27,341 bases of DNA from a virus (Duplodnaviria; Caudoviricetes), in the IMG/VR virus record IMGVR_UViG_3300043425_001053, positions 1 to 27,341 of that record; one strand, 5' to 3'. Below the pieces are notes generated by a model. It did no database searches. It was not told the DNA's origin and saw nothing but the letters and a program-made list of their open reading frames with translations. The position numbers and the translations under genes are program-made. Positions 23,433 to 27,341 of this stretch are shown here, piece after piece. Every line of letters begins with the position of its first letter. The stretch's first letter is position 1.

Positions 23433-25376
23433 TTAATACCCAAACTCTTCATCGTAAATGATGTGACGGTCGGCTTTATATCTCGCCATCCTAGTATACA
23501 CATCTTCCATTGGCGGCCTGCTCATAAGCAAATACCTGCCAGCGTCGTATGCGTGGTCCTCAGCTGTGGTGTCCACATCCTCGTTGTCATTCTTGTCGAG
23601 TGGTATCACTTGCAGCTGCTTTATCCAGTTGACACAGTTTGAGAAGATGAGCATCTTAGGCTTACCATTCTCCCTGATCTTCAACCTTTCATGTATTTGT
23701 ATCTTGCCAGCCTTTCTGTTCTTGTCTGCTCTGCGCAGCTTGTGACCAGACCTGAGAAGCTCCTCACCTACTGTAGGCCCTGTAGACCCTGTAGTGTTCC
23801 AGGAAGCACCGTCCAGCACACCCATTATCTCACGCATCTCCTGAGACTCTGCTTGGTGCATAGCCTCTCCTAGGGCCTTCCCTGTGAGCCCCTTAGCGTA
23901 CAACTCCCTGTAGAAAATAATGGTACCATCGTCTGGGTCAACTGCTGCCCAAAGACAGCATGACGGGGCTCGATAGCCATAGTCAATTGCCTTGACACGT
24001 TCCCAATGCACAGGTATTTCGAAGGGCTGTATGACGTGGATGTGAGGCATGAACTCAGGGAAGGCAGCGCCCTCGATGATGTCCCAGTCGCCCTCCAACA
24101 ACCTTTGACGCTGTACTGGGTCCATGGACTTCAGCATGCGTTCGTACTCACCATCACTGGCAAGAGTCGGGTTGTCTGACAGCTTAGCGGGGATGAACTT
24201 CCTGCTCACCCCATCCTCTCCAACAAACGTCTGCCCATACGGTGCAGGGTCTACATACCGCTTCTTCACCCATGCGTGGCCAGGGCCACCAGGGTTGGAA
24301 GTGCAACGCATGTAGGTTTTAATTCTTGGGTTGGTTGTTCTGAGACGGGAACGCAAGTAGTCCCAAGCAAAGCTTGTGGCCAAGTGCGTAATCTCATCAA
24401 ACCCTATCCATGAATATGCCTTACCTTGGTACTGGTACACGTCACTATCTTTCTCAAGATAGCCGAAGTACCCTTTGGCACCTGAAGGAAATATCCATGT
24501 CTTCTTGCTTTCTTTGTACTCAGCACCAGGGAATGCTAATGGGTATAGCTCCCGTGACTTATCTATAAGTTCATCCAATTCACCCAGCGTCTTACGCAGA
24601 ATGAGGAAGCGGTGCTCTTTCTCGTGTACATAACGAAGAGGGTCTACAAGCATGGCGTATGACTTACCACCACCTGCAGCACCCCCGTACAATACGTCCT
24701 TCTCAGCTGCCGCCAAGAAGTCTGTCTGCGGCCCAGGATGTGGCCTAAATGCCACAGGAGTGGTACCGTCTTCTAGGTTGGTCACCACAGCCTGTGGAAG
24801 GGATTGAAGGTGCTCCTCAGAGATGATGGCGGGGGTCTTATTGGCCACGCCATCCCCGGCATCCAACCTCTGAGCAGCTTCCTTCTTTTTGTTAAGGAGG
24901 CTTTTCTGCCTCTCTAATTTTGCTTGGAGACGTTCTACGTCTTTCTTCTTCTTGTTGATGCTAGAACGGACGGCACGCTTTGCTTTTGCTTCAGCACCTT
25001 GCCTATAACCACCACGGGCTTGTCTACGTTTCCTGACGGGAATGCCGTTGGTTCTTAGGACGAAGCTGCCATCTTCGTTTCTTTCATAGTTATCGGGATT
25101 GACTTCCCAATCTTTTACTTTTGAGTCTGAGGGGAGGACACCCTTGTCCCTTTCGGCTACGGCACGACGAAGACCTTCTCTGCTAAGCTTCTCTCCTGTT
25201 ACGGAGAAGATGTAATCAACACCTTCCTGCAGAGACAACCTCTTCTCAAGGATGCCATCAATAGCCTTGTTCAAAGCCTCAATGTGCCCAGCTATGGGCC
25301 TCATCATTCCTTCAGCATCAGGGGCAAGTTCATACCCCCACTTAAGCCTTGGGGTGGCTTTGATATAACCTTCCAC
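23433..25376 (-). CDS. terL: terminase large subunit with ~200-aa N-terminal extension
   Basis: Walker A YGGAAGGGKS, Walker B IGFDE, SNPGGPGH, nuclease motifs IDYG and EDHAYDAGRY. Confidence 0.95.
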   Translation of the reverse strand: MEGYIKATPRLKWGYELAPDAEGMMRPIAGHIEALNKAIDGILEKRLSLQEGVDYIFSVTGEKLSREGLRRAVAERDKGVLPSDSKVKDWEVNPDNYERNEDGSFVLRTNGIPVRKRRQARGGYRQGAEAKAKRAVRSSINKKKKDVERLQAKLERQKSLLNKKKEAAQRLDAGDGVANKTPAIISEEHLQSLPQAVVTNLEDGTTPVAFRPHPGPQTDFLAAAEKDVLYGGAAGGGKSYAMLVDPLRYVHEKEHRFLILRKTLGELDELIDKSRELYPLAFPGAEYKESKKTWIFPSGAKGYFGYLEKDSDVYQYQGKAYSWIGFDEITHLATSFAWDYLRSRLRTTNPRIKTYMRCTSNPGGPGHAWVKKRYVDPAPYGQTFVGEDGVSRKFIPAKLSDNPTLASDGEYERMLKSMDPVQRQRLLEGDWDIIEGAAFPEFMPHIHVIQPFEIPVHWERVKAIDYGYRAPSCCLWAAVDPDDGTIIFYRELYAKGLTGKALGEAMHQAESQEMREIMGVLDGASWNTTGSTGPTVGEELLRSGHKLRRADKNRKAGKIQIHERLKIRENGKPKMLIFSNCVNWIKQLQVIPLDKNDNEDVDTTAEDHAYDAGRYLLMSRPPMEDVYTRMARYKADRHIIYDEEFGY

Positions 25377-25768
25377 TAGTCTTCTTCCCTTTTCATTGGG
25401 AGGATGAAGATACCACCCTTCCCTTCATGCGAGACATCAAGTCTCTCGGTTTTGGGGTTGGTCCTGTCAAGAATGACAGAGGCTGCTTTGAGCTTCTGCT
25501 CAGCCTGCACTACACCCTCTTTGCTATTCATTATCTTCACTACAGCGATGGCTGCATTAACTGAGTGTCCTGCAAGAACACTTTCAGCAACCTCTGCAAT
25601 TTCCTTCCTCATTTCCTTCACAGCTCTGTACGGCTGCTTATAACCAGCTGCCCTTGCCGCTGCAACAAGGTCACCATTGTATTCTTCGATGAGGTCAAGG
25701 AACCTTTGTTGCATCTCCGTCAAGGGCCTTTCCCTCTGGGGACTGGCTGGCATGTTCGTCATTGACAT
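25376..25768 (-). CDS. terS: terminase small subunit (putative)
   Basis: LTEMQQRFL...GD...AARAAGY HTH-like N-terminus, AA..ILDR, C-terminal GGIFILP.K; directly upstream of terL. Confidence 0.75.
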   Translation of the reverse strand: MSMTNMPASPQRERPLTEMQQRFLDLIEEYNGDLVAAARAAGYKQPYRAVKEMRKEIAEVAESVLAGHSVNAAIAVVKIMNSKEGVVQAEQKLKAASVILDRTNPKTERLDVSHEGKGGIFILPMKREED

Positions 25769-25871
25769 TCACTGTTTCCTTTTTCTTTGAGGGGAAAGAC
25801 ATTTCCCACCTCTTCCTCATCTCTTCATCGGAGATGTATTGGGGCCTTCGGCCACTACCTTTACCAGACAT
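25695..25871 (-). CDS. small basic phage protein (58 aa), absent from the ORF track
   Basis: Manual translation MSGKGSGRRPQYISDEEMRKRWEMSFPSKKKETVNVNDEHASQSPEGKALDGDATKVP; the GKGS.RRP...W...F pattern resembles a common small phage protein. Confidence 0.55.
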   Translation of the reverse strand: MSGKGSGRRPQYISDEEMRKRWEMSFPSKKKETVNVNDEHASQSPEGKALDGDATKVP

Positions 25872-26107
25872 AACCCACCATGTGTAAGAGACTCTTCATC
25901 CTTTTTCATCCTCCTTACCCTTCCCTAAACATTCCCTTAACAATTGCTTTATTAATATTATTATTATTAATACTTAAACATTTGCACGCTTAGGGGGAGC
26001 GGCTTCGCACGCTCTATACTGTGTTACTATGTTTTTGTATACTGGCATATACTAATATCATGTTTTTAACAAAAACATTACAAGAAAAATAAAAAATATT
26101 TATTCCG

Positions 26108-26123
26108 TGTGATTGCAGTCACA
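26108..26123. promoter_or_regulatory. CRP/Vfr-type binding site
   Basis: TGTGA-TTGCAG-TCACA, an exact TGTGA-N6-TCACA core, next to an AT-rich tract. Confidence 0.55.
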
Positions 26124-26201
26124 TCATCCTCACATTTCTTAGCATTGTTCTGCCATCCTCTAAGCATCTTTCTATCATCTACCACAGCATATACCAAGCA
26201 T
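26122..26201 (+). repeat. helically phased CAT array
   Basis: CAT at 26122, 26133, 26143, 26154, 26165, 26176, 26188 and 26199. Confidence 0.6.
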
Positions 26202-26441
26202 TGTTTCCACGGCCTAGGAGCGTAGCTCTCCACCGTGGCTACTATCGGGCAGCCAGCAATTGTGACATGCCAATTTCCCAGAAAATTGAGCGGAGGGGAC
26301 TATATCCCCCACCACCCCCACGTGGGCACCTGCCCGCCCCCATGTGTGTGTCCGCGTGTGTGCGTGCGTTGGGGCACTTCTTGACGCGACGCGTGTGTAC
26401 GTGCGCGACACGCACGCCTGAGTCTTCTATTCGCGGGGAGG

Positions 26442-26461
26442 TACTGGACAAATTTACAGTA
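26442..26461. promoter_or_regulatory. LexA SOS box 1
   Basis: taCTGGACAAATTTACAGta (CTG-N10-CAG with TA flanks). Confidence 0.7.
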
Positions 26462-26490
26462 TTGACAGGCTGGGGAGAGTATGTTAGAGG
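26462..26490 (+). promoter_or_regulatory. putative sigma70 promoter
   Basis: TTGACA, 17-nt spacer ending in TGn, then TAGAGG (imperfect -10). Confidence 0.45.
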
Positions 26491-26498
26491 GGGTGGAC

Positions 26499-26518
26499 TA
26501 CTGTACACTTATCCAGTA
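26499..26518. promoter_or_regulatory. LexA SOS box 2
   Basis: taCTGTACACTTATCCAGta. Confidence 0.75.
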
Positions 26519-26530
26519 CCCCGGCCTATA

Positions 26531-26550
26531 TGCTGTATAAATATCCAGTA
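26531..26550. promoter_or_regulatory. LexA SOS box 3
   Basis: tgCTGTATAAATATCCAGta. Confidence 0.8.
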
Positions 26551-26561
26551 GAATCAACGAG

Positions 26562-26620
26562 GTGTTACCGATGTTACCTGAAGTAACACTGGATGCTACC
26601 TGAAGTAACACTGGTAACAC
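26562..26620. promoter_or_regulatory. TGTTAC/GTAACA enhancer (UAS) array, CbrB-like; includes a 22-bp tandem repeat
   Basis: TGTTAC at 26563 and 26572, GTAACA at 26583, TGCTAC at 26594, GTAACA at 26605 and 26614; GATGYTACCTGAAGTAACACTG twice (26570-26613). Confidence 0.65.
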
Positions 26621-26638
26621 TTTCTGGCCTGTTCTTTG

Positions 26639-26658
26639 CACTGTATGGATGTACAGGA
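26639..26658. promoter_or_regulatory. LexA SOS box 4
   Basis: caCTGTATGGATGTACAGga (CTGT-N8-ACAG). Confidence 0.8.
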
Positions 26659-26678
26659 GAAAATTCTTTTCCCTTCAA

Positions 26679-26691
26679 AATCAACGACTTG
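26679..26691 (+). promoter_or_regulatory. IHF binding site
   Basis: AATCAA-CGAC-TTG matches WATCAANNNNTTR exactly, with an A/T tract upstream. Confidence 0.7.
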
Positions 26692-26708
26692 CAGCACATT
26701 TTCCAAAG

Positions 26709-26725
26709 TTGGCACGCCACCTGCA
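26709..26725 (+). promoter_or_regulatory. sigma54 (RpoN) -24/-12 promoter
   Basis: TTGGCACG-CCAC-CTGCA; GG (26711-26712) and GC (26723-26724) are separated by 10 nt; predicted +1 near 26736. Confidence 0.75.
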
Positions 26726-26735
26726 CTGTTCTTGG

Positions 26736-27085
26736 CGTCCCGGTGCGTTCCTGCCGGGGTCGCCGGAATGCTGACAGGCTTGCTGGGCGTTATCAGTGCA
26801 TAGGCCAAGGTATGTCTAAGACATATGCGGCTGTCCTGTTACGTGAGTGAGGCCACCAAGGCCGGCAGGGAGTCTATAGGACTCTGGCGTGAGATCGCCG
26901 CCGGCCTCGCAAGGATGCCAGCCAGTTACGGAAAACCTATTTAAGCCGCCCCAGAGGGGGCCGTTACGGGTAGAACGGATTGGCAACGGGTGAGCAGGGC
27001 ACGGGAATTAAAGCAGGCGTGAGTCTAGGGCAATCTGTCCCTAGCGGCTGGCGCGGGTAAAGCCGGGCAAAAAGCAATAAGTGTT
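26736..27085 (+). ncRNA. putative structured leader/ncRNA
   Basis: No + strand ORF of 60 aa or more starts here; several short stems; bounded by the predicted sigma54 start and the ribozyme cleavage site. Confidence 0.45.
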
Positions 27086-27130
27086 CAGGGGTATGCCCCT
27101 GCTGATGAGGCCAGAGGGCCGAAACACTTA
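27078..27130 (+). ncRNA. type III hammerhead ribozyme
   Basis: Stem III TAAGTGT/ACACTTA; GUU cleavage triplet (27083-27085); stem I CAGGGG-TATG-CCCCTG; core CTGATGA; stem II GGCC-AGAG-GGCC; GAAA. Confidence 0.93.
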
Positions 27131-27157
27131 CTAAGGGTGAAGGGTAAAGGTCAAGCC

Positions 27158-27341
27158 ATGACACAATCAAAGCGAGCGAAAGTAGCGGCCAGAAAGTATC
27201 TGGCGAAGGTGGAGAGACAATGGCAGGAAGAACAAAGGCAAGCCATTGAAGCTAAGAGACTGGCAAGGGGTAAGACAAAACAAACAGCCAGCTTCCGGGC
27301 ATCGAAGGCAGGCAGGCCACAACCAGCCAGCAAGGGTCAGG
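27158..27341 (+). CDS. first early gene, basic protein (runs off the window)
   Basis: ATG at 27158 after AAGG; open to the window end: MTQSKRAKVAARKYLAKVERQWQEEQRQAIEAKRLARGKTKQTASFRASKAGRPQPASKGQ. Confidence 0.65.
   Translation, partial: MTQSKRAKVAARKYLAKVERQWQEEQRQAIEAKRLARGKTKQTASFRASKAGRPQPASKGQ

Follow-up and report, generated by a model that had tools for sequence, protein, structure and literature searches.

The window analysed here, a stretch of 27,341 nucleotides, is part of the genome (about 50 kb) of a Zobellviridae-like podovirus. It holds a minus-strand late arm, with the genes for the small and large terminase subunits (terS and terL), portal, capsid and tail, and ends in the first early open reading frame (ORF). 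The terS gene marks the divergent late arm that adjoins the control region, which itself lies between terS and the early genes and is made up as follows.

25376..25768, minus strand: terminase small subunit gene, terS (phrog_4044, E 1.4e-4; 73% identity in the nearest relative)
26444..26459, no strand: LexA box 1, four mismatches to the consensus, abutting the -35 hexamer
26462..26490, plus strand: sigma70-like promoter, TTGACA, 17 nt, extended -10 TG-n-TAGAGG without T at -7
26501-26516, no strand: LexA box 2, four mismatches, accessory
26533-26548, no strand: LexA box 3, three mismatches, accessory
26563..26619, plus strand: CbrB-type enhancer, TGTTAC-N14-GTAACA-N16-GTAACA at 26563/26583/26605
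26572, 26594, 26614, plus strand: three interleaved half-sites in the enhancer
26641..26656, no strand: LexA box 4, five mismatches, flanked by the enhancer and the IHF site, a predicted block to activation
26679..26691, plus strand: IHF site, consensus match; all full modules have it at -31/-32, forward or reversed
26710..26724, plus strand: sigma54 -24/-12 element, GG-N10-GC, predicted start near 26736
26736..27077, plus strand: predicted untranslated leader, variable, not CrcZ-like
27078..27130, plus strand: type III hammerhead with GUU triplet, predicted cut after 27085 (Rfam and fold)
27158..27341, plus strand: first early ORF, small and basic, running off the window end

A 48-kb record, G001, which is 92% complete, is 99.99% identical to the window over positions 1-26262 and encodes, beyond it, a family A DNA polymerase, a primase-helicase, an ECF-type sigma factor of its own and an amidoligase cluster. 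The polymerase, the sigma factor and the amidoligase cluster, together with the lack of an RNA polymerase, are the gene content of PA11-like Zobellviridae. The best matches of the DNA polymerase are found in Pseudomonas Zobellviridae (TC6, PA11 and O4, 60%), and those of TerL and the capsid protein in phages of the HTVC103P/HMO-2011 type (52-58%). As judged by the polymerase matches and by the taxonomic range of the regulatory motif, the host is likely to be a Pseudomonas-like bacterium. The sequencing runs that contain at least half of the sampled words are labelled as freshwater or wastewater metagenomes, and none of 50,697 cultured-phage records matched positions 25800-27341 by blastn. The lack of a repressor or integrase in the window, pointed out in the original prediction, extends to G001: the 69 ORFs scanned in G001 and in the nearest relative, G002, gave no match to T7-like RNA polymerase, integrase or repressor families. 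HTH_3, S24 and resolvase domains (PF01381, PF00717, PF00239) were each found in none of five records (G001, G002, G003, G005 and G007), and the tyrosine integrase PF00589 in none of ten, the records searched being 12-95% complete and most of them incomplete. A genome end may lie near a GGGGA-N5-TCCCC hairpin region (26277-26344, 79% conserved in G002), because G001 starts at 26262 and the end of L227 is close by. An alternating purine-pyrimidine tract (26343-26416), 5' of box 1, is present in L228 and absent in G002, and a group I intron is located in the terL region of the nearest relative (L213:200-466, minus strand; Rfam E 1e-8).

Four LexA-type boxes, as originally claimed, stand out in the control region (26444, 26501, 26533 and 26641), with 3-5 mismatches to what we take to be the LexA consensus; the next best site in the scan has 9. 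None of 300 window and 2000 intergenic shuffles produced more than one such box; CTG-N10-CAG by itself is about as frequent in the window as expected (15 found, 14.8 expected). The boxes resemble the CTG-N10-CAG boxes of host SOS genes and overlap promoter elements, which suggests that they are gammaproteobacterial LexA operators; the pattern also precedes recN, recA and lexA in P. nitroreducens (three of the four places fetched). Box 4 is the poorest match, and box 1 occupies the same position in L213 and L228, its core being retained in strain X4. The promoter next to box 1 was predicted correctly as far as its TTGACA at 26462 is concerned, but it is not a normal sigma70 promoter, since its -10 hexamer, TAGAGG, lacks the canonical T at -7. 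It is absent from the output of the promoter scan and, with this defective -10, is likely to be weak. Four LexA-flanked sigma70-like promoters were seen in the clade (window 26485-26490, both L213 copies and L228), and each has a G in place of the T at -7 of its extended -10.

At 26563-26610, the array agrees exactly with the published CbrB consensus, TGTTAC-N12-14-GTAACA-N15-19-GTAACA (PMC8871633), with spacers of N14 and N16 in the window and of N13 and N17 in L213, where the enhancer is conserved. Across the whole window TGTTAC/GTAACA is not enriched (14 against 13.6 expected); here, five exact half-sites fall inside 60 bp, a cluster unmatched in the shuffles (maximum of 2 in 300 window and 3 in 2000 intergenic shuffles), which confirms the array originally described. 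The IHF site (26679), scored against a consensus that we presume to be correct, and the sigma54 element (26710) are each at chance level when taken singly. As a pair at the observed spacing, they appeared in none of the 2300 shuffles (0 of 300 window, 0 of 2000 intergenic), so both elements were rightly placed. With its GG-N10-GC element, and an IHF site between this element and the enhancer, the promoter appears to be of the CbrB type, in which CbrB and IHF activate sigma54-dependent transcription under carbon limitation (PMC6296734). The coverage of RNA run X10 is confined to terL and 25876-26036, outside the module; no transcript of the locus turned up, but assembled contigs of this kind do not establish absence.

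Bacterial genomes (10 of the 64 parts of the collection) were scanned for the enhancer together with a -24 motif, which yielded 120 loci. The -12 GC is present in 96 of them, and a CA-rich RNA follows in 92 of these 96; by record title, 81 are Pseudomonas or Ectopseudomonas and most of the others Cellvibrionales-type genera. Rfam recognized CrcZ strongly in 3 of 11 host loci and weakly in one, and the host match starts at the place equivalent to the predicted phage start. The phage promoter shares with the Pseudomonas crcZ and crcY promoters the enhancer consensus, the 20/22-bp subsite spacing, the IHF position and the sigma54 core, of which up to 23 of 26 bases are identical to crcZ cores (PMC6296734, PMC8871633). 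It differs from them in that the enhancer lies 23 bp further out and carries extra half-sites, a LexA box has been inserted, and the downstream RNA is not CrcZ. Promoters of the crcZ type, mostly with CA-rich RNA, were also seen in Cellvibrionaceae, Hahellaceae, Saccharospirillum and Spongiibacteraceae (L233, L235, L248, L252, L255, L263, L276, L295, L307, L340 and L351), and therefore the range of the motif exceeds the family said to be the only home of CbrAB.

The combination recurs in other phages. Viral contigs were searched for a LexA box preceding a sigma54 element, the enhancer being outside the search pattern, and at least four CbrB half-sites were found in 16 of the resulting 61 loci, as against 31 of 2715 background windows (promoters included). 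Enhancer, LexA box and sigma54 core are united in 16 phage contigs, namely this phage and 15 others from uncultured phages, which fall into about seven groups of promoters and stem from no fewer than three terminase lineages. In these 16 contigs a LexA box lies between enhancer and IHF site; this arrangement occurs in none of the 96 host promoters, where no LexA box was found within 300 bp. Among the matches listed, the module separates the late arm from the early genes wherever the flanks suffice, and many modules have an ORF 26-133 nt from the promoter. The LexA box is at -69/-70 with a forward IHF site in the window and L213, and at -57/-58 with a reversed IHF site in the 14 other contigs, the flip shifting the offsets by approximately whole helical turns (-58 to -69; -124 to -147). 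Enhancer, IHF site and sigma54 element are found without a LexA box in L367/L368, L373 and L383; L367/L368 and L373 also have the hammerhead, and L383 ends too early to show one. The published consensus, the comparison with host promoters and the recurrence in phages thus argue for the regulators named in the original prediction, that is, LexA, CbrB, IHF and sigma54.

Several contigs carry sites of other kinds, the Fur-like and parS-like ones being judged by consensus sequences that we assume. Palindromes resembling parS are located 190-400 bp 5' of the sigma54 element in integrase-less phages (L214, L422, L429, L433, L434, L444 and L449), and Fur-like boxes with tandem LexA boxes precede sigma54 elements that lack a CbrB array (L396, L399, L415, L419-L421, L424-L426, L435, L439 and L441). 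Arrays of the TGAC-N7-GTCA type accompany IHF/sigma54 or LexA/sigma54 promoters in L212, L214, L219, L224 and L440, which suggests a second host enhancer protein. In L402 there are at least four tandem units, each consisting of a sigma54 motif and then a LexA box.

Alignment with related phages had been proposed as a check, and in G002 both the order of the elements and their near-identical spacing are kept: a LexA box with TTGAC, the enhancer, a box at -70, the IHF site at -31, the sigma54 element and the hammerhead are all retained, with core offsets within 1 bp of those of the window. In strain X4, positions 26552-26934 are unchanged (box 4 included) and boxes 2 and 3 are destroyed, a loss that mosaic exchange could explain as well as selection. 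Conservation of the sites therefore holds for the core and the hammerhead, but not for boxes 2 and 3 in X4 or for the leader, and the number of LexA boxes among close relatives ranges from 2 to 4. A palindrome of the TTATCG...CGATAA type stands in place of the missing boxes 2 and 3, in X4 at window 26500-26550 and in L213 at about -195. The strain comparison leaves out run X8. A metagenome scan returned five loci, three of them true relatives and none new across the enhancer, and among 80 terminase loci, many of them too short, only L002 showed the module.

The putative ribozyme has the CUGAnGA/GAAA core, three stems and NUH triplet of a hammerhead. Its match to Rfam Hammerhead_3 at 27078-27130 (E 4e-8, 44.5 bits) bears out the hammerhead of the original prediction, but the score falls below the gathering score of RF00008 (48.5). 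In X4 it differs by seven substitutions and a 2-nt insertion, all in loops, at position 7 or in a G-U pair (read by hand), which leave core and stems intact, and a hammerhead is found at the equivalent place in L213. Among 127 hammerhead-pattern loci, only the nearest relative has the module 5' of the hammerhead. We regard the element as a likely constitutive mRNA-processing site and not as part of the sensor. The hammerheads of PaP3, Bcep176 and HF1/HF2 also lie just 5' of early genes, where processing of long transcripts has been proposed, and that of PaP3 is active in vitro (PMC3088659); they differ in that no link to a host-regulated promoter is drawn there, whereas the ribozyme predicted here follows such a candidate promoter and has a GUU triplet. 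Reviews describe the role of phage early-mRNA ribozymes as largely open (PMC6765202). In the case of LUZ24, we noted a type I hammerhead between gp5 and gp6 (L454:2409-2486). The C of its GUC triplet (2478-2480) is a mapped RNA 3' end, T004 at 2480, to which the supplement of PMC10914365 assigns no terminator class; the main text of that paper makes no mention of a ribozyme. This coincidence lends in vivo support to ribozyme processing of phage early mRNA. GP100 has an unannotated type II hammerhead (L361:570-640) after its first early ORF, overlapping a sigma70 consensus (z -3.0).

Our preferred reading, which we hold with confidence evenly divided, is that the module is a host-controlled main early promoter, which CbrB would switch on when carbon is scarce and LexA would keep repressed until the DNA is damaged. 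From the sites, their spacing and their recurrence we infer binding of these proteins and the logic that would connect them. CbrB, together with IHF, would activate the sigma54 promoter in carbon-poor cells, LexA at box 4 would block either the bending by IHF or the contact between CbrB and sigma54, and boxes 1-3 would repress the weak upstream sigma70-like promoter. Healthy cells would then show little early expression and starved, damaged ones much, and lysis would be deferred without any phage repressor. Whichever promoter had fired, constitutive cutting by the hammerhead would leave the first genes with the same 5' end, protected by a hairpin. This phage and those that share its layout probably let the hunger of the host and damage to its DNA time their first genes.

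A bolder version is tentative and, in our view, rather doubtful: a widespread group of podoviruses lacking repressor and integrase would run a lysis-or-wait decision entirely on host regulators, with a sigma54 AND gate (CbrB on, LexA off) at the first-entering end and with Fur and parS sites as interchangeable modules in relatives, so that healthy hosts would carry the phage quietly and starved, damaged ones would be lysed. Entry of the T7 genome is pulled by transcription; if the same applied here, the promoter of the module could even gate DNA entry. A true gate is favoured by the 19-kb early arm of G002, which, unlike those of LUZ24, K4, TC6 and GP100, holds no TTGAC-17/18-TAnnnT promoter, that is, no sigma70 promoter of consensus quality. 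Several observations oppose it. G005 has the full module plus several LexA-free sigma70 promoters of consensus type farther along the early arm, the early arm of G001 has one 10/12 sigma70 match (inside an ORF), and G002 has a strong terminator after its second gene, so that the module may control just two genes unless it is read through. Nothing visible in this phage supports a long carrier state, as a search of it yielded neither a parS-like site nor a plasmid gene. The original proposal of a lytic programme gated by the host is consistent with the regulator sites, but its dormancy switch is something we only infer, and the LexA-free relatives, strain X4 and LUZ24 speak against it, as do the ordinary promoters that some relatives have downstream.

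The same observations bear on an alternative that is possible, although we would not expect it, in which the module boosts early expression instead of gating it: CbrB and sigma54 would start transcription in starved cells, LexA would dampen it, and the SOS response to infection would lift the repression within minutes, with no deferred lysis. Versions of the module free of LexA boxes, the variable box number among close relatives and the LexA-free consensus promoters of G005 all fit this idea, as do the cultured phages. Nine of these were scanned, five whole or nearly so and four in part, and none has the CbrB enhancer array; LUZ24, O4, K4, GP100 and Slicky01 carry single parts of the module. 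A LexA box abuts a -35-like hexamer in four of the nine (O4, K4, LUZ24 and Slicky01), a sigma54 motif lies near the early end in four (TC6, GP100, O4 and K4), and an early hammerhead is present in two (LUZ24 and GP100). The cultured relatives are described as lytic, and P002 of LUZ24 (at 331), which adjoins a LexA box, is an active start in ordinary infection in LB, among five early promoters (PMC10914365 and its supplement); LexA can therefore modulate at most there. What a mere booster does not account for is the position of the LexA box beside the IHF site, fixed across about seven promoter groups, the lack of strong sigma70 early promoters in this clade, and the parS-like and Fur-like sites of several related contigs, which fit persistence better than speed.

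It is improbable that the region is docking or decoy DNA at the first-entering end, trapping sigma54 polymerase, LexA and CbrB (e.g., as a trigger of the host SOS response or a shield of the end) and yielding no useful transcript. Tandem or overlapping sigma54 motifs with LexA boxes and without an enhancer (L402, L392, L431 and L403), as well as the bare sigma54 motifs near the end of TC6, GP100, O4 and K4, could be explained in this way. The sigma54 element of the window, however, is arranged with its enhancer and IHF site as in a crcZ promoter and faces the early genes, and a decoy has no need of helical phasing.

The leader was originally described as about 350 nt long, hairpin-rich and structured, a claim that does not survive: its folding is ordinary (z = -0.9 for 26736-27085, 40 shuffles; -1.5 with the ribozyme included), blastn found no similarity to the L213 leader, and the segment 26768-26840 is replaced in run X5. 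It is very unlikely that the promoter serves to make a regulatory RNA of about 350 nt freed by the hammerhead, either a counterpart of CrcZ/RsmZ or an antitermination element, for although the strongest host targets of CbrB are small RNAs (PMC6296734), the leader of L213 has a folding z of -2.4 to -3.7, and non-coding leaders of 430-590 nt, some strongly folded (z -1.7 to -9.2), precede a small basic ORF in TC6, O4, GP100 and CW02, the features just listed and the short promoter-to-ORF distance of many modules stand against it. Identity with CrcZ/CrcY was rejected (0 AANAANAA motifs, no match to Rfam RF01675), as was an RsmY/RsmZ/CsrB-type sponge, with GGA found 7 times and expected 6.3 times, no excess; ANGGA occurs 4 times against 1.4 (p 0.05), and in the L213 leader 4 times against 3.4. 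Five ACGG words in 80 nt (26925-27005) were noticed after the fact; the counts, also post hoc, are 5 against 1.2 in the leader and 8 against 2.7 in that of L213, with no significant excess in five other leaders. Nothing in the window reached the Rfam gathering level, and mir-466 and other weak matches were put down to chance. The first early ORF is where it had been predicted, starting at 27158 and cut by the window end, and a basic 60-aa ORF has the equivalent position in L213. It matched no PHROG or Pfam family, and neither these databases nor the ESM Atlas backed its candidacy as a lambda-N-like antiterminator.

Our literature search, mostly outside subscription journals, returned no report of a CbrB-driven or LexA-blocked sigma54 promoter in a phage. 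The module is real and recurrent, and as a way of capturing host regulators it is apparently undescribed, its role as a switch being putative. At present, a phage with neither integrase nor repressor is scored as strictly lytic; if CbrB and LexA do time the early genes, lifestyle calls based on gene content miss a class of phages with deferred lysis. Pseudolysogeny in nutrient-poor water would then gain a concrete mechanism at the level of DNA, and the module would offer a naturally occurring example of an enhancer-driven sigma54 promoter that LexA blocks.

Control of phage timing by host regulators is already known, through LexA in GIL01, through Spo0A and parS in phi29, and in the deferment by CtrA (PMC9437464). 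The sigma54-like promoter P015 of phage YuA is, like the one proposed here, a phage promoter read by host sigma54 (PMC10914365), with the difference that no enhancer, IHF or LexA site is named for it, LexA and IHF having 0 occurrences in the main text of that report. GIL01 resembles our phage in having several host LexA boxes at its leftmost promoter and no recognised CI repressor (PMC4551915, PMC9437464); it differs in being temperate, in its Bacillus host, in its need for gp7 and in having no sigma54 enhancer. Parallels may also be drawn with the control of phi29 by Spo0A and parS and with the 'lytic deferment' by CtrA, in which a virulent-type phage carries sites for host regulators in a divergent intergenic region and these time lysis (PMC9437464). 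The parS sites of phi29 have parS-like counterparts in modules related to the present one, but not in this phage, and the regulators are others: here, an activator-dependent sigma54 promoter appears to be combined with a repressor.
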